A stretch of DNA of 64,000 nt from the NCBI GenBank assembly GCA_037444125.1, contig JBBINA010000001.1, forward strand, positions 13,961 through 77,960, in the 5' to 3' direction. The notes under the pieces were generated by a model that did no database searches, was not told the origin of the DNA, and saw only the letters and a list, made by a program, of their open reading frames with translations. Position 1 is the stretch's first letter. Each line of letters opens with the position of its first letter. This DNA is from a bacterium (GTDB taxonomy: Bacteria > Patescibacteriota > Minisyncoccia > JBBINA01). The position numbers were made by a program, and so were the translations under genes. Below, in pieces: positions 33,897 to 43,749 of the stretch.

Positions 33897-33970
33897 TCCG
33901 GGATCGTCTAATGGCAGGACGCCACGCTCTGGACGTGGAGATTGGGGTTCGAGTCCCTGTCCCGGAGCCA
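33897..33970 (+). tRNA. tRNA-Gln (anticodon CUG), CCA-encoded
   Basis: cloverleaf folded by hand: acceptor TCCGGGA/TCCCGGA with U1:A72 typical of bacterial tRNA-Gln, D stem GTCT/GGAC, anticodon stem CCACG/CGTGG, loop CTCTGGA, T arm TGGGG-TTCGAGT-CCCTG, GCCA end. Confidence 0.85.
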
Positions 33971-36040: not shown

Positions 36041-37047
36041 ATGCCTATACGAATTGGTCTGAATGGTTTTGGGCGGACAGCGCGGACTTTTTTTAGAATT
36101 GTAAGCGAAAGTCCATCGGTTGAGCTTGAGGTTGTAGCTATTAATGTAAAAAGTCAAAGCCCAGAGCAAGCAGCTTATTTACTTAAATATGATTCAGTAT
36201 ATGGACGATACTCCAAAGATGTATTGTATAACGATAAAACCATCAAAATAGAAGGTTGCGAAGTTCCGATTCTACAGGTTTCAGACCCGGCAGAAGTTCC
36301 TTGGTTTAAGTTTGATGTAGATATAGTTGTCGAAGCAACTGGGAAGTTTAGATCATTTGATAAAGCAGCTAAACATCTTGCCAGCGGTGGAGTTAAAAAA
36401 GTGCTTATTACTGCGCCGGCAAAAGGCGATATTCCCACTATTGTCTTTGGGGTTAATGACAATATTTATAACAAAAAGAGGTATCATATAATTTCAGCTG
36501 TTTCTTGTACTACTAATTGTTTGGCACCTGTGGCTTTATTTTACATAAAGAGTTTGGAATAAAAAGGGGTTTAATGACTACGGTTCATGCTTATACTGGT
36601 AGTCAAAATTTAGTGGATAGCAGTAACGAAGATATGGTTGAAGGCCGGGCGGCGGCTGTCAATATTATTCCGACAACAACAGGAGCGGCTAGCGTCATAG
36701 GTTTAGTAATCCCGGAACTGAAGGATAAACTTGATGGTATGGCTTTTCGCGTGCCCGTTCCTACAGGATCAGTGATTGACCTAGTAGTGGAATTAGAGAA
36801 GAAGGTTCTTGTTGAAGAGGTTAATAATATTTTTAAGCAATACGCTTTTGGTCAATTTAAGAAAACACTTGGTATTTCTGAGTGGCCATTAGTTTCCTCA
36901 GATTGTATTGGCGATAGCAGATCTGCCATTGTTGATTTAAGCTCAACTAAGATTATTGATGGAGACTTTTTAAAAGTAGTAGCTTTTTATGATAATGAGT
37001 GGGGTTATTCTGCGAGACTTGTTGATATTGCTAAAATGCTTTTATAA
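36041..37047 (+). CDS. gapA: glyceraldehyde-3-phosphate dehydrogenase, interrupted by a 1-nt frameshift near 36535-36545
   Basis: GLNGFGR, SCTTNCLAP then frame switch, then GLMTTVHAYT; two overlapping ORFs 36041..36562 and 36517..37047; strong SD AAAGGAGGT. Confidence 0.85.
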
Positions 37048-37232: not shown

Positions 37233-38279
37233 ATGGTAGAAGTAAGTTATAGTAAAGTAAATATGTGGTTTTTTTGCCAAAGAATGTTTTGGTATGTTTA
37301 TGTAAAGAAGCAAAAAATGCCAGCCCCAGTAGCTTTAGTTTTTGGAGATGCTATTCATAGAGCTATTGAGTGGTTATATAAGGGCGATCCGCGTCAGAAA
37401 TTAAAAAGACTTAATAATGGCTATTCGCAGCTTTATTTTAAGTCGGCTGAATCATTTGTTAATTTTTGGAAATTTTTGTGGCGGGAATTTAATAAAGGTA
37501 AAAATGCTAATCCTGCAATACTTGGAACACAGCCTTATGAAATAATTAAGTTTTCAAGTAACAATTCTTACGCTATTAAAGAAGAGTATTATACGTTGCA
37601 AAACTTCGGCTCGTCTTTATTGAGGTATTACTATAATACTCATAGTAAAAAAGGACCTTTTCCGATCGAAGTAGAGAAAACTTTTTGTATTCCTTTAGGA
37701 GCTGTAAGGAGAAGTTTAGAAGGAGTAAGATTGAAAGGCGTTTTTGATCAAATATGGCGCGATCAAAAAGGAAACTATATTTTAGTAGATTTTAAAACCG
37801 GCTGGCGTTTTTATTCAATTCAAGATCCTCAAGCGCAGCTGCCTTTACATAAAGATTTCCAGTTAAGCCTCTATAGTTTAGCTTTTAGATATATTTATAA
37901 AACTGAAGAAAGTTGTATTATTTGGTACCCTTTGCATTACGAGAGAGATAATAAAAATGGCAACATTAATTATTGGAAGCCGGTACCGACTTTTAGAACA
38001 AAATCTGATCACGAACGCGCTTTAGACAGAATTGAAGCTTTTATAAAGGGAATTAATCTGAATTATTTTGAGCGTACGAGCGATCCAAACCGTTGCCGGC
38101 ATTGCTCTTTTTTTAAATCGTGCTGGGGAGAAGAAATTATGGTTACGCGACCTTTAGAAGTTAGCGAATTGCCGACGATTTCTATTAAAGAGCAAATTTA
38201 CAATTTAAAAGAAAAAGTAAGTTGTATGGATCCATTGATTAGCGAGCCACGACTTAAACTCAAACCGCGTCAGTATTAG
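37233..38279 (+). CDS. stand-alone Cas4-like PD-(D/E)XK nuclease with Fe-S cysteines (DUF83/RecB-family)
   Basis: N-term YSKVNMWFFCQRMFWYVYV, GDAIHRAIE, ILVDFKTG (D..K), QLSLYSLAF, C-term CRHCSFFKSC; strong SD. Confidence 0.72.
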   Translation: MVEVSYSKVNMWFFCQRMFWYVYVKKQKMPAPVALVFGDAIHRAIEWLYKGDPRQKLKRLNNGYSQLYFKSAESFVNFWKFLWREFNKGKNANPAILGTQPYEIIKFSSNNSYAIKEEYYTLQNFGSSLLRYYYNTHSKKGPFPIEVEKTFCIPLGAVRRSLEGVRLKGVFDQIWRDQKGNYILVDFKTGWRFYSIQDPQAQLPLHKDFQLSLYSLAFRYIYKTEESCIIWYPLHYERDNKNGNINYWKPVPTFRTKSDHERALDRIEAFIKGINLNYFERTSDPNRCRHCSFFKSCWGEEIMVTRPLEVSELPTISIKEQIYNLKEKVSCMDPLISEPRLKLKPRQY

Positions 38280-38421: not shown

Positions 38422-39259
38422 GTGAATACATATTTTAAAATAAGTTTAAAAATTTTTTTCATTGTTGGCGGTTTATTTTTTGGTTTTGTAGGTGAGTTTA
38501 GTACAGGACAATTGGTTCATTTGTCATCAGACTTTGATTTAGAAGTTGTTTCTTTCATCACTTCTCAAAATACTCGTCGAGTTGTTCGAAATCAGGACAA
38601 AAAGATATACGGCGCAATTGTGCTGCATCGTTTATTAGCTAAACCAATTATTACCGAAATCTTGAACGAAGTAGCGCAAATTTTTAAATTGCAGAAATGA
38701 ACACCTAATCAGGTTATACTCTTTTCTCCGAATCATTTTTTAACTGGAAAGTATCCTATAATTGGCACAAGCTTTGATTGGAAGACAAAATTTGGCATTG
38801 TTCAAAGCGACAAAATTGAGACTGCTGTTTTTGGTTTAACTATTAAGCGTGAGTATCTCGATTTGAAAAATAAGCCTATAGAAGAGTTTTCTGCCGGTGA
38901 TTTAGTAAAGATAAAATTGATCGTTAATTCCCGTAATAATGAAAAATTAATTTACATTATTATCGAGGATTTCTTACCATCTAGTTTTGCTCCTCAAAAT
39001 CCGCGATTAGAGAACGGGAGTGAACGAGAACGTCGGTGGTGGGGGTACGAAATGGATATAAGAGATGAACGTGTGGTTTTTTGTGGACAATCTTTGGAAT
39101 GACATACATATATTTGACTATATAGCGCGCGTCAACTTTAGAGGCGAGTTTGAGGTGTCAGCTCCGCAGGTTCAAATGATGTATGTGCCTACAAATTATG
39201 GCTTTGGTAGTGCTAAAAAAAATGATTATAAATTAAATTTTTTCAATTGGGTTTTTTGA
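38422..39259 (+). pseudogene. C-terminal remnant of an alpha-2-macroglobulin family protein (A2M receptor-binding/MG10-like region)
   Basis: IIEDFLPSSFAPQNPRLEN matches the A2M C-terminal LPAGxExEN motif; in-frame TGA at 38698-38700, frameshift in T6 run 39077-39082; the N-terminal >1000 aa expected for A2M are absent. Confidence 0.5.
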
Positions 39260-39368
39260 GGTTGGGGCTTCAAAAATTATTTCATAACAGTCATATTGAC
39301 AGAAGTAATTTTATACATTAAAATATAGATAGAGCTCACTAAAACAAATTTATAAAGGAGTGATAGTG

Positions 39369-40583
39369 ATGAAGAGGTTTGTATGCTTGGTCGGTTTGCT
39401 CCCGTTTTTTGCTGGCATTAGCGCGGCGGCGCAGGTTCCGTGGGTTTTTGAGCGTCCGGGATTTGGCGGCGGACTTGATGTGAATATAATTAAATCCGGG
39501 CAATTCGTTGAAATCAGAACTACCCATGAAGCATTTCTTTGTGTTTATGGATTTTCGCTTGACCAAAAGATTATTGATTATAATGACCAGGTACCTGTGG
39601 CGGTATTAAGATACGCTGGATCTAAAACATTATTAAATCCTAAAAACGCAGTTTGGCTGCAAGTTATTGCTGTAAAGACTAGTCCAGTTTTTGAATGTGA
39701 TTCGCAACACTTAAGTTTCTTTAGAACACCTAATGAACTTAGTGATTGGATGCAGGTTTTAGCTAGAAGCATTCAAGAGTATGGCGTTTCTCTGTGGGCG
39801 GCTAGATTTATTTATTTAGGATCTGCGCAAGGTGAAGGAGCAAAAATTCAAGGAGCAGTGGAAAATCAAAACCCGACGCCCCTTGTTACTTGGAAGCCAC
39901 AGATTCCTTTTGTGGGCCAAGAAGTTATTTTCGATGCTTCTAATTCGTATGATTCAGATGGTGGGATTATTTGGGTAGGTTGGGATTTTGGTGATGATGG
40001 CATTTTTGATACTACTGGAACAAGCTTAAGCGTTAGTTTTCGTTTTCAATCTGCTGGTTATCAAAAAGTTAGGTTGACCTTAAAAGATAATCGCGGCGGG
40101 CAAGCTAGTACAGTTTTAACACTAAGGGTAAACCCCCTAAGAGCTGAGGAAGTTTTCAGTTATACGATTAATGCTGAGTGTGTAATTATTGATAGCGGCG
40201 GCGCCAAAGAATATGTCCTAGTAGAAAGCAAATATTATTCATTTAATGCCGGTTCTTCCAGTTTTCGAAGTATCGGTTGGGATTTTAATTTGGATGGACG
40301 AAATGACAGCCAGGCTGTGGCTATTATGTCTTTCCCTAAGGGAGTGCGGTATATTGCTATTAACGGTATAAATAGTACAGGTGAATATCGAGGCGAGCAG
40401 ATTAAGTTAAAGGTTGTCACCGTTTCAGAACTTTCGGTTTATTGTAGGGTAGATAAGATTTATCAACCACCCAGCAAACCATCAAAAACCCCTGTCCCCA
40501 TTAATTTTAAGACAATTGTGGCCGTTTTTATGGTTCTGCAAGTAGTAGGCATTGTTATTTGGGGAATTATTAATAAGAGTTAA
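39369..40583 (+). CDS. cell-surface PKD-domain protein with signal peptide and C-terminal TM anchor
   Basis: signal peptide, PKD motif FDASNSYDSDGGI..VGWDFGDDG, C-terminal hydrophobic anchor; SD AAGGAG 8 nt before ATG 39369. Confidence 0.7.
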   Translation: MKRFVCLVGLLPFFAGISAAAQVPWVFERPGFGGGLDVNIIKSGQFVEIRTTHEAFLCVYGFSLDQKIIDYNDQVPVAVLRYAGSKTLLNPKNAVWLQVIAVKTSPVFECDSQHLSFFRTPNELSDWMQVLARSIQEYGVSLWAARFIYLGSAQGEGAKIQGAVENQNPTPLVTWKPQIPFVGQEVIFDASNSYDSDGGIIWVGWDFGDDGIFDTTGTSLSVSFRFQSAGYQKVRLTLKDNRGGQASTVLTLRVNPLRAEEVFSYTINAECVIIDSGGAKEYVLVESKYYSFNAGSSSFRSIGWDFNLDGRNDSQAVAIMSFPKGVRYIAINGINSTGEYRGEQIKLKVVTVSELSVYCRVDKIYQPPSKPSKTPVPINFKTIVAVFMVLQVVGIVIWGIINKS

Positions 40584-40608
40584 GTTAAATATTTAGTTTG
40601 TAGCTTGA

Positions 40609-40640
40609 CGGAAGGAGTAGTTGTCCTTCCGTTTTTTGTT
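40609..40640 (+). terminator. rho-independent terminator (CGGAAGGA-N8-TCCTTCCG + T6)
   Basis: seen directly. Confidence 0.7.
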
Positions 40641-40647
40641 TACCCTC

Positions 40648-40675
40648 TTGACATTTTTATATGGTATGCTAGAAT
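40648..40675 (+). promoter_or_regulatory. sigma70-type promoter TTGACA-16-TAGAAT with TG extended -10
   Basis: seen directly; drives a ~150-nt leader ending in a hairpin/T-tract before CDS 40841. Confidence 0.55.
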
Positions 40676-40840
40676 AAAAACGTGAAAGTCCGAACCAACT
40701 CGATTATATTATAAAGATTTAGGTTTAAGGTGGTATTAGCAGGACGAGCGTTCGAACTTTTTTATTTTGTTCTCTGAAATTGGAATCTCGGGTGGCAATC
40801 CAAACAAACACAAATCAATCTTAAGGAGGATTGATAACCC

Positions 40841-41155
40841 ATGGCTCGAAAAACTGTTCAGCCCGGAGCTGTTCGTCAGACAATGACTTTGGAGGAGCCG
40901 ATTACTGTGGTTCAGTTGTCAGAAATCGACTCCGTAGGTTACTATGTTAACACGCAAACTGGTCTTGGTTTGCGGGTTGACAAGAATCTTCTTCAAGCCC
41001 TGAACATCGGCGGCCATGCTTTCGGACGTTTTGAGGCTAGCCCCGAAAATCAGGGATTGCTGCAGTTTGCCAAAATCAGTGGGGATCCGTTTATCCCCAG
41101 CGACGAAGCGGCTTTGCGCGCCGCTCGCGCTAGTCTGCCGGTCGCCTTCCAGTAG
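40841..41155 (+). CDS. hypothetical 104-aa protein in a compositionally foreign (~52% GC) gene
   Basis: strong SD AAGGAGG-10-ATG, GC-rich codons, followed by two terminators (GCGGGCT-t-AGCCCGC; CCCCAGCTTG-gtaca-CAAGCTGGGG+T5 at 41213-41245). Confidence 0.6.
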   Translation: MARKTVQPGAVRQTMTLEEPITVVQLSEIDSVGYYVNTQTGLGLRVDKNLLQALNIGGHAFGRFEASPENQGLLQFAKISGDPFIPSDEAALRAARASLPVAFQ

Positions 41156-41323
41156 TAAAATAGCGGGCTTAGCCCGCATCGTTTAGTCAAAAGCGCCACC
41201 CGAGGTTTCTTGCCCCAGCTTGGTACACAAGCTGGGGTTTTTCTTTATTCTAGAAAACTTGCGTCCTTAATATATTAGGTTTAGAATATTAGAGTTAGAA
41301 ATAAATTATAATTAATTTTACTT

Positions 41324-41686
41324 ATGGTTAATAAAATTTTTCTCGCCTCGGGAATTTTGGTTATTGTTATAATAGTTATAATAATTGTAGTAATTTTTAT
41401 GATAAAACAAAAAACTGAGAAATCGAATAGTTTTAGTAATTTGCCTATGGCAAATAAGGTAGTTGATTTTGCAGCCAAAGAATTAAAAGTTGGCCCCAAA
41501 GAAATTACGATCATTGAAATAAAAGAAGCCGAATGGCCTGATGCTTGTCTCGGCTTAGTAAAAGCCGGCGAGTTTTGTGCTCAAGTTATAACGCCGGGTT
41601 ATAGTGTCCTACTTCGCGCAAGGTCTATAGAGTATCGTTATCGTACAGATAAAGAGGGCATAGTTATTATTCAAGATACAAGATAA
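41324..41686 (+). CDS. hypothetical membrane-anchored protein
   Basis: N-terminal TM helix then ~80-aa domain with 2 Cys. Confidence 0.45.
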   Translation: MVNKIFLASGILVIVIIVIIIVVIFMIKQKTEKSNSFSNLPMANKVVDFAAKELKVGPKEITIIEIKEAEWPDACLGLVKAGEFCAQVITPGYSVLLRARSIEYRYRTDKEGIVIIQDTR

Positions 41687-42832: not shown

Positions 42833-43749
42833 TCAATCGGCGAAAATAGCTAAAACTAGCGGCACGGCGATTAGCGAAAAAATCGTTGAAGTAAGTATAG
42901 CCATACTTACTGCTTTTGTGTCAAGATTAAATCTTTGTGCTATGACGAATGTGGTTACTGCTGTTGGCATAGAGGATAAAAGCAGAGGAATCCTAATATC
43001 CGGAGTTCTAAAGACAAATAGGGCAATTAAGACTGTTATAAAGGGAAATAAAAGCATTTTGGTTATACTTATTATTAAGATTAAACTCATATTTTTTGTT
43101 TGAAATTTGCCGTATAAAAACTACCCAACAAAAAAAGGGCTAGTGGCGAGGCGGTTTGGCCGAGCATATTAAGGGTTTTTTGGAAGGCTTGTTCTAATTG
43201 AGTATCTGTTTTGACGAAACTTAAGACGGCGCCAATTGCAATCGAAATAACCAGCGGATTCTTGGCAAATTCAAATACTTCGTTTTGAATATTATTTTGA
43301 TGTTTATCGTGCCAGTAGTAAATGACAAATATTGAAGTCAAAATTGGAATTACCAAATAAAGATTGCCGATAATAGCGGCTGTGGGTAGGTGATTTTTCC
43401 CGAATCCAAATTCAACCAGCGGAAAGCCCATATAGATTGTATTGCCGGTAATGGCAGCAAGAAATAGGGCAGATTTGAGACTGTTTTTAATTTTAGCAAT
43501 TGATAGGACAAAAAAAACAATAAGTGAAAAAACAAAAAGCGTTATTAAGCCAAAAACAAAATGCCGATGAAGATTTGTGTCGGTTAGGTTAAGGTTCCAT
43601 AAGCTGACTATTACTAGTGCTGGAAGCGAAACATAATAGGCAAAAATATTTAAAATATGGACCCAGGAGTTGTCGGCAAGTTTAAGTTTTCGAAAGAGCC
43701 AGCCGGCGAAAATTATAAGAAATAGAGGCAGAGAAATAAAAAATGGCAT
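42833..43749 (-). CDS. auxin efflux carrier (AEC) family transporter, split by a 1-nt frameshift in the central loop
   Basis: ORFs 43087..43749 and 42833..43090 overlap in ATGA; they fuse if the A6/T6 run at 43093-43098 is one nt longer; two 5-TM halves typical of the AEC/Mem_trans family. Confidence 0.7.

Follow-up and report, generated by a model that had tools for sequence, protein, structure and literature searches.

A covarying helix between the untranslated regions of an mRNA for a GC-rich orphan protein in Patescibacteriota, combined with an attenuator-like leader

Introduction

Bacterial mRNAs in which a helix between the untranslated regions (UTRs) at the 5′ and 3′ ends has been studied experimentally are a handful, such as hbs and icaR. 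In the Bacillus subtilis hbs mRNA, which encodes HBsu, a 14-nt stretch just 3′ of a 5′ UTR hairpin pairs with sequence just upstream of the terminator (PMC5737220). This pairing restrains RNase Y cleavage, as was proven with compensatory mutants (Braun, Durand & Condon 2017, PMC5737220). In Staphylococcus aureus, intramolecular 5′–3′ UTR pairing is reported, in outline, to control translation of the icaR mRNA (Ruiz de los Mozos et al. 2013, PMC3868564). Here we describe a 104-aa open reading frame (ORF) and its control sequences, which lie on the + strand within a 64,000-nt stretch of contig JBBINA010000001.1 from a member of the Patescibacteriota. This whole stretch is called the window, and coordinates are counted from its first nucleotide. 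The mRNA of this gene is predicted to be clamped by a helix between its UTRs and to begin with a leader that resembles an attenuator.

The icaR 3′ UTR reportedly pairs with the Shine–Dalgarno (SD) region. Bacterial transcripts can also be stabilised by stem-loops at the 5′ terminus, as in the ompA, ermC and aprE leaders. The original prediction for our locus had described a foreign GC-rich cassette with a consensus promoter, a long structured leader and tandem terminators. What is noteworthy beyond that description is the covarying 5′/3′ UTR clamp around an orphan small gene whose base composition seems to be maintained. Our preferred interpretation, in which we place about even confidence, is that the locus produces an attenuator-gated, stable mRNA, clamped like that of hbs, for a small orphan protein that has been inherited vertically.

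Results

A predicted helix joins the 5′ and 3′ UTRs

Comparisons were made among the window clade (the window and lineages L001 and L006), L016, whose protein is 40% identical, and higher-GC homologues that are referred to as group B. Invariance values given below are across the three window-clade lineages. When the whole transcript was folded, a 15-bp helix with two G·U pairs joined GGAAUCUCGGGUGGC in the 5′ UTR (40782–40796, + strand) to GCCACCCGAGGUUUC in the 3′ UTR (41195–41209, + strand), the latter arm ending 2 nt before the terminator stem. Given the two G·U pairs, the helix would work only as RNA transcribed from the + strand. The window, L001 and L006 transcripts contained the clamp both when folded to minimum free energy (MFE) and in the centroid fold, and L016 contained it in the MFE fold, with GAUUUCUCUGGCAAGA and UCUUGCCAGAGAGAUU as its arms. 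Its position is fixed in these four low-GC lineages at 41–44 nt before the AUG and 30–37 nt before the 3′ end, and its two arms are 88% and 73% invariant.

RNAduplex comparisons with shuffled sequences were uninformative because long loops are allowed, and a test of the longest ungapped 5′ UTR–3′ UTR helix was used instead. This helix measures 15–16 bp in the window, L001, L006 and L016, and at most 1 of 200 shuffles reached that length in any lineage. In a structural alignment of the four sequences, which represent two deep lineages, 96.9% of the cells were paired and 8 of the 16 pairs had changed on both sides. None of 500 shuffles matched this result, and control alignments in which the arms were slid reached at most 52%. 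These compensatory changes argue that the clamp pairing is under selection.

Boundaries of the predicted transcription unit

We found the near-consensus sigma-70-type promoter that had been predicted, TTGACA-16-TAGAAT (40648–40675, + strand; score 11/12), with its −35 box at 40648–40653, a 16-nt spacer, its −10 box at 40670–40675 and, in addition, the TG of an extended −10 element at 40667–40668. L001 and L006 share an identical −35 box and a conserved −10 box, and equivalent TTGACA/TATGnTATAAT promoters are present in L016, L014 and L017. The predicted transcription start, ~40682, was set ~7 nt past the −10 box from the position of that box alone. A 5′ UTR of 120–183 nt and a solitary gene were found in every lineage of the orphan family.

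Upstream, a gene for a PKD-domain protein (39360–40583; Pfam PKD) is followed by its own intrinsic terminator (40607–40633, + strand; a 10-bp stem and TTTTTGTTT in the terminator scan), which forms the 5′ boundary of the cassette. L001 and L006 have an equivalent hairpin of different sequence. Downstream, a gene for a small transmembrane (TM) protein (41324–41686) has its own promoter, TTGCGT-17-TAGAAT at 41256–41284, which is conserved in L001 and L006. With a terminator of its own behind the upstream gene and a conserved promoter of its own in front of the downstream gene, the 104-aa gene is read as monocistronic.

The tandem GC-rich terminators of the original prediction were reduced to one. 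The canonical intrinsic terminator, GCCCCAGCUUGG-UACAC-CAAGCUGGGGU followed by UUUUCUUU (41212–41246, + strand), was identified in the scan with 11 pairs, 7 of them G-C; its 11-bp stem at 41212–41238 precedes the U-run, and the stem GCCCCAGC/GCUGGGGC is kept in L001 and L006. L016 likewise has this terminator. The other candidate, 3′ UTR hairpin 1 (GCGGGC-UUA-GCCCGC, GCGGGCTTAGCCCGC; 41163–41177, + strand), is followed on this strand by ATCGTTTAGT and no U-run; the scan flagged it on the − strand only, and it is not a terminator on the + strand. Counterparts of this hairpin are GCGGACUU/AAGUCCGU in L001 and GACAU/AUGUU in L006, such that the hairpin is kept while its sequence is 12.5% invariant.

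The 3′ UTRs of four group-B members (L014 5283–5381, L017 577–674, L019 951–1016 and L022 1652–1750) share AGACACAC-YU-GGUWAAGUUCAYC and a nearly identical terminator, GACCCTCATGAG...CTCATGAGGGTC, despite diverged proteins. L017 has ACGUAGG at its 5′ end and again in its 3′ UTR. A 15-nt inverted repeat (40664–40678 versus 41244–41258, 87% complementary) brackets the cassette from the −10 region to a point past the terminator. L001 and L006 do not show it, and in AT-rich DNA it is probably a chance occurrence.

Predicted competing folds of the leader

A leader of ~150 nt containing a long-range stem followed by T6AT4 had been predicted, and we found it as described, with a length of ~159 nt from the predicted start at 40682 to the ATG. 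In both the MFE and centroid folds, a hairpin (AAAGTCCGAAC/GTTCGAACTTT) precedes the T6AT4 tract; hairpin and U-run together are called the T form (40685–40768, + strand). The 5′ arm, AAAGTCCGAACCAACTCGA (40685–40703), and the 3′ arm, GGACGAGCGTTCGAACTTTTT (40742–40762), are each unique in the 64 kb. AAAGTCCGAACCAACTCGA pairs with GGACGAGCGTTCGAAC (40742–40757). In the T form, AAAGU.CGAAC (40685–40695) pairs with GUUCG.ACUUU (40750–40760) around one conserved C·A mismatch, and a second helix forms between CUCG (40699–40702) and CGAG (40746–40749). The U-run (40758–40768) consists of T6 (40758–40763), an A and T4. The hairpin begins 2–3 nt from the predicted transcription start, and within 0–3 nt of it when the window and L016 are taken together.

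The arms and the U-run are essentially invariant in the three lineages: 19 of 19 positions in the 5′ arm and ~20 of 21 in the 3′ arm. Elsewhere, invariance is 35% in the hairpin apex, 15% in the spacer after the U-run and 32% at third codon positions. The same layout recurs in L016 as AGAAAGUC.CGAGCU/AGUUCG.GAUUUUUU followed by U8, with a single internal mismatch in the same place. Across the lineages, the U-runs are U6AU4, U6, U5AU5 and U8GU5.

Folding of co-transcriptional prefixes revealed an alternative, P1/P2 (40688–40745, + strand). P1 pairs GUCC (40688–40691) with GGAC (40742–40745) and so draws on the 5′ strand of the terminator, whereas P2 pairs ACCA.CU (40694–40700) with AG.UGGU (40728–40734) and has a variable apex. 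P1 enclosed P2 in the prefix folds of the window, L001 and L006, and GUCAC/GUGAC served as P1 in L016. Predicted energies are −6.4 to −14.8 kcal/mol for P1/P2 versus −9 to −15.5 kcal/mol for the terminator fold. In group B, most leaders (L014, L017, L012) have a P1-like helix, AGUCAU/GUGACU, after GAAA. The group-B P1/P2 element is GGAUAUCCAGUCUUCGUAUCC, and several of these leaders contain the inner hairpin GGAUAU-CCAGUCUUC-AUAUCC.

The conserved hairpin and U-run, the competing fold and the recurrence in L016 make an attenuator-like reading of the leader plausible, as the original prediction had proposed. Its suggestion of a riboswitch found no known counterpart. When Rfam 15 was searched with the window (gathering threshold), with 40500–41400 (E ≤ 10) and with seven homologous loci (E ≤ 0.1), nothing relevant was returned; the sub-threshold matches, for example to NsiR1 and anti-hemB, were terminator-like noise.

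We also considered the possibility that P1/P2 serves as the aptamer in a new riboswitch for a small molecule, acting through a terminator platform in the low-GC lineages and through a translational or other platform in lineages resembling Candidatus Fraserbacteria. Most family members begin their leader with a GAAAGUC(A/C) 5′ motif and a P1-type helix, P1 is predicted to exclude the terminator and vice versa, and every lineage has a very long 5′ UTR (120–183 nt) ahead of a tiny gene. Between the groups, however, conservation does not extend to the inner part of the domain: P2 is absent in L021 and L022, and junction nucleotides differ. A covariance model of the group-A leader failed to detect the group-B leaders, and neither that model nor a search with the arms found a second copy of the leader before other genes, whether in the 64-kb window or in the homologous loci. 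Nor does the regulated gene give any hint of a metabolite, and the lack of an Rfam match adds to these points. We therefore consider a riboswitch highly unlikely.

Three other candidates for the leader were set aside. For leader-peptide attenuation, the window offers GTG-AAA-GTC... (10 codons) and L006/L007 a 33-aa ORF; these lie in different frames, and their first codons coincide with or precede the predicted transcription start. Similarity to a signal recognition particle RNA, RNase P or T-box hairpin is limited to short look-alikes (GAAAGUCC and GGUGGUA) that Rfam did not support. The complementarity of the leader 5′ arm to 41021–41030 within the ORF is not kept by orthologues and was treated as chance.

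Structure in the remainder of the transcript

Between the clamp and the start codon lies a CA-rich linker, AUCCAAACAAACACAA (40799–40813, + strand), which is unpaired in the predicted folds and 75% invariant; its equivalents are AAAACAACAACCAAAUC in L016 and CCCAACAC in group B. It is followed by a predicted SD hairpin, AUCAAUC(UU)/(AG)GAUUGAU (40814–40835, + strand), which is 85% invariant in the window clade. The strong SD sequence that had been predicted, AAGGAGG (40823–40829), covers the loop and the beginning of the 3′ arm of this hairpin. The SD hairpin has a predicted energy of −8.1 kcal/mol, and its equivalents in L001, L016 and L014 range from −7.2 to −7.7 kcal/mol. The stems vary by lineage (AUCAAUC/GAUUGAU, UCUCC/GGAGA or ACUUCU/AGAAGU), and the loop has AAGG or AGGA.

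Relative to shuffled sequences, the whole transcripts of the window, L001 and L006 fold with z-scores of −5.2, −8.8 and −7.3. Compared with synonymous-codon shuffles in which both protein and codon usage were fixed, the window-clade coding sequences (CDSs) gave z-scores of −2.0, −3.2 and −6.4. GGA motifs were found in hairpin loops, namely at the P2 apex of L001 (UUGAAGGAAUUCAA) and in the SD loop.

These properties bear on the possibility that the clamped, GC-rich body of ~450 nt has a second function as a scaffold or sponge for a GGA-binding regulator. The z-scores of −5 to −9 for whole transcripts, the preference of window-clade synonymous sites for more structure than expected and the GGA motifs in loops are all compatible with a dual-function RNA, and a closing helix beside the terminator resembles the closure of stable non-coding RNAs. 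On the other hand, purifying selection on the protein is strong, and no conserved internal RNA motif was identified. The excess CDS structure was absent in L016 and in group B, where the results did not include L017 and L019, and thus is not a property of the whole family. We give a dual function only a slim chance.

The ORF is translated and its composition appears to be maintained

The ORF (40841–41155, + strand; 104 aa) was judged to be protein-coding from codon-position differences and from its membership in an orphan family of 93–104-aa proteins. Its two close homologues are 83% and 79% identical. Counted over first, second and third codon positions, the three pairs differ at 16/7/46, 21/11/48 and 14/6/52 nucleotides. 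Since third-position differences dominate, the ORF is translated and under purifying selection. In keeping with these counts, 88% of second codon positions are invariant versus 32% of third positions.

The GC richness noted in the original prediction was borne out. The ORF has a GC content of 0.530 and a GC content at third codon positions (GC3) of 0.533, versus 0.349 ± 0.027 and 0.285 ± 0.030 for 51 ORFs of the window. Its GC3 is more than 8 standard deviations above the window mean, overall window GC is 34.7%, and the ORF is the only 315-nt stretch in the 64 kb with a GC content of at least 0.50. GC3 of the ORF is 0.50–0.54 in the three lineages, while neighbouring genes range from 0.26 to 0.40. 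Across nine lineages, the GC content of the ORF is 0.48–0.55 and that of the locus 0.33–0.58. The composition seems to be maintained, because imported DNA evolving neutrally in an AT-rich genome would be expected to lose its bias in the course of synonymous change as saturated as that observed here.

Such an extreme outlier (0.53 versus 0.349 ± 0.027 for GC, more than 8 standard deviations for GC3) could also have entered the genome recently as an accessory gene of phage, plasmid or island origin, perhaps encoding a toxin or immunity protein, as had been suggested. The family is very rare and patchy and occurs in lineages of widely differing GC, and its genomic context varies among distant lineages. 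In close relatives, however, the gene is syntenic: the order is a PD-(D/E)XK gene, the PKD gene, the 104-aa gene and the small TM-protein gene, and the 104-aa gene lies between the PKD and TM-protein genes in the L001–L009 lineages. No integrase, transposase or other mobility gene was found near the gene or in this syntenic slot of diverged relatives, and the window contains housekeeping genes for DnaK, aminoacyl-tRNA synthetases, ClpB, DnaE and PPDK. Searches of IMG/VR, INPHARED and PLSDB found no relatives on phages or plasmids, PADLOC gave no match, and PHROG matches appeared only at E ≥ 0.015. GC3 also stays high after saturating synonymous change.

The toxin or immunity function fared no better. 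The gene is read as monocistronic and has no partner gene (the downstream TM-protein gene is unlinked to the family gene in other lineages), the leader has no tandem repeats of the ToxIN RNA type, neither PADLOC nor Pfam gave a match, and the protein, as read from its sequence, is close to charge-neutral and lacks both a TM segment and a signal peptide. A transfer from one phylum to another in the distant past is conceivable, but it would not make the gene an accessory island. The gene looks chromosomal and vertically inherited rather than foreign, and we give recent import very little credence.

A rare orphan protein family

A profile search of 1.8 billion representatives added 2 true relatives, the remaining matches being repetitive proteins, and an iterated search then enlarged the orphan family to 11 clusters (93–104 aa) among 5.8 billion proteins. 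Conserved features are G-x-Y-V-N-x-x-x-G and a C-terminal L-P-V-x-F. Searches of Pfam, NCBIfam, PHROGs, PADLOC and a PDB-sequence profile returned no family match, in agreement with the original statement that the protein belongs to no recognisable family, and no common housekeeping family emerged. Of 185,579 species-representative genomes, one carries the family, a Candidatus Fraserbacteria metagenome-assembled genome; the genome and metagenome scans each found one locus, in that same organism.

AlphaFold (AF2) with 11 sequences predicted a small alpha/beta domain after a disordered N-terminus of ~20 aa (predicted local distance difference test score, pLDDT, 81; predicted template modelling score, pTM, 0.71), whereas a run with 3 sequences was unusable (pLDDT 43). 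The predicted structure matched nothing in PDB or BFVD. In our preferred interpretation, this is a small cytoplasmic protein.

The genomic contexts of distant members are mutually unrelated and include genes for Asp23, a cold-shock protein, a copper ATPase and SecA. In L011 (5380–5485, 5546–6127) and L020 (420–508, 633–1151), two ORFs come after the family gene, first a conserved basic one of ~30 aa (MKLKDRKMPVKQENNRPGNNRPANKKPGTGGRKS and MRLQEKKEPVKSDSSKPDNQKPGTGGPKK) and next an Asp23-family gene; the family gene of L014 has a cold-shock-domain gene behind it. These neighbours give a weak hint of a stress context in some lineages.

Other features of the window

Between the PD-(D/E)XK gene (37233–38279) and the PKD gene, ~1 kb (38422–39259) contains only degenerate short ORFs (92, 79 and 64 aa), of which the second has a weak match to bMG10 (alpha-2-macroglobulin). 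L001 and L006 have only ~260–340 nt in this place, and the region is probably the remnant of a decayed gene. On the − strand, a Mem_trans (PF03547) carrier (42833–43749) is divided into two overlapping ORFs, 43087–43749 (220 aa) and 42833–43090 (85 aa), which could reflect a split gene, a frameshift or programmed coupling. Glyceraldehyde-3-phosphate dehydrogenase (~36041–37047, coordinates derived from the L010 gene table with an offset of 35840) is likewise encoded by two neighbouring ORFs, one of 173 aa (Gp_dh_N) and one of 157 aa (Gp_dh_C), that are 11 nt apart and may represent a frameshift or a split gene. The only match at the Rfam gathering level in the 64 kb is a tRNA gene at 33897–33967 (+ strand; 55.8 bits).

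Discussion

In our model, the near-consensus promoter would be a housekeeping promoter that fires strongly. The first ~85 nt of the transcript would then fold in one of two ways that share the 5′ strand AAAGUCC, with P1/P2 being completed first during transcription. The longer hairpin and its U-run would act as an intrinsic terminator, such that the fold present when RNA polymerase meets the U-run decides whether the ORF is transcribed. The predicted folds compete and are conserved, and from them we infer termination at the U-run and an effector that governs it. This effector seems more likely to be a protein, either the product of the gene or a GGA-binder of the CsrA type, than a small molecule; the GGA motifs in loops are a lead toward the latter protein. 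In full-length mRNA, the 15-bp helix would clamp the 5′ UTR, ~44 nt before the AUG, to the 3′ UTR right before the terminator. Together with the 5′-terminal hairpin, the SD hairpin and the structured, GC-enriched CDS, the clamp would limit access of endo- and exonucleases; by analogy, it may thereby stabilise the message. The GC richness would be held by selection on RNA and protein composition rather than reflect recent import.

Several observations weigh against this model. The leader alone was no more stable than shuffled sequence (z = +1.1), and the case for the leader is built on conservation and on the geometry of the competing folds, not on folding energy. As a terminator, the T form is atypical in enclosing an insert of ~50 nt, the terminator scan did not call it, and the terminator fold is not the MFE fold of L001. 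P1 is short, 4 bp in the window clade and 4–5 bp across the four lineages, and with just the window clade and L016 as lineages that are in effect independent of each other, RNAalifold found no leader pair changed on both sides. Autoregulation by the gene's own product is a guess. In group B, the leaders have no U-run, the clamp is interrupted in L014 (7+5 bp) and L017 (6+5 bp), and it was not found in L011, L012, L019 or L022. Because group B has neither a U-run nor an intact clamp nor excess CDS structure, the mechanism may be specific to the window clade. The analysis as a whole is limited to the few available lineages, to comparative sequence and to predicted folds.

The same features of the hairpin, its large internal insert and its absence from the scan, are what would be expected if it were merely a 5′-terminal stabiliser that blocks 5′-end-dependent decay, with no attenuation and with constitutive, high expression. 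The U-run would then mainly pair with the 5′ GAAAG or serve as an AU-rich site for a nuclease or S1. In line with such a role, the T-form helix extends to the predicted +1 in the window and L016; the clamp, the structured CDS and the strong terminator all point to stability, and the hbs 5′ UTR hairpins likewise shape RNase access. Yet the U-runs are longer than pairing with AAAG requires and are kept in both independent lineages, and a stabiliser would need neither the conserved stem mismatch nor a nearly isoenergetic alternative fold. Moreover, group-B leaders keep P1 but carry a single-stranded 5′ tail of ~15 nt. We regard the stabiliser explanation as possible but rather unlikely, and continue to favour an attenuator-gated, clamped mRNA.

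More speculatively, the GAAAGUC-P1/P2 leader, the clamp and the SD hairpin may constitute an undescribed cis-regulatory RNA architecture dedicated to one orphan family and conserved from Candidatus Fraserbacteria to low-GC lineages. The family protein, or else a GGA-binding regulator, would sense the leader and set the level of read-through, and the CDS would be selected as a structured RNA, resulting in an autoregulated, quasi-circular, dual-purpose mRNA. We consider this wider proposal unlikely.

Whatever its effect, the clamp is backed by comparison alone: half of its pairs (8 of 16) are compensated across 60% protein divergence, which amounts to an evolutionary test of selection on the helix. 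It is combined here with a proposed terminator-type leader switch and with a coding region of ~50% GC in genomes of 33–39% GC. This ORF is also a cautionary case, in that GC-outlier ORFs are not automatically foreign. As a rare small protein that is probably expressed at a high level and whose structure is predicted with confidence, from poorly known uncultivated lineages, its product offers a defined target for structural and functional work.

Among described systems, leader attenuators and riboswitch platforms of low-GC bacteria share with our leader a strong promoter, a structured leader and a hairpin with a U-run well before the SD sequence, as well as a competing predicted fold that sequesters one terminator strand. 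The U-run version occurs here in low-GC genomes, and P1 without a U-run in higher-GC genomes. Our leader differs in having no Rfam match, no conserved ligand-type core and no conserved leader peptide, since the frames differ. Whereas terminators of such leaders are usually compact hairpins to which the 3′ strand contributes, the one proposed here shares the 5′ strand of P1 and so would enclose the entire sensor domain. Like stabilisers of the ompA, ermC and aprE type, the leader has a stable helix within a few nt of the predicted 5′ end, but here a long U-run forms the end of the helix, for which there is also an alternative fold.

With icaR, as far as the reported outline of that system goes, the transcript has in common an intramolecular helix joining the 5′ UTR to the 3′ UTR of a bacterial mRNA. 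The 5′ arm of the clamp, in contrast, stops 44 nt short of the AUG and ~26 nt short of the SD sequence, which is left free. Because the clamp leaves the SD sequence untouched, direct occlusion of the ribosome-binding site is probably not the mechanism.

The likeness to hbs is greater in layout. Both are monocistronic mRNAs for a protein of ~90–100 aa, with a strong SD sequence and a structured 5′ UTR containing hairpins, and the clamp of 15–16 bp occupies the same two places as the hbs pairing, which spans 14 nt; it is thus at least as long as the ~14 nt of that pairing. The protein itself is unrelated to HU and has no Pfam match. The hbs pairing overlaps a mapped RNase Y site, whereas the clamp was identified by folding and sequence comparison. 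Our leader adds a hairpin with a U-run and the alternative P1/P2 fold, and the CDS is a GC outlier with excess structure. The locus is therefore a combination of known kinds, a putative leader attenuator joined to a long-range interaction of the hbs type.

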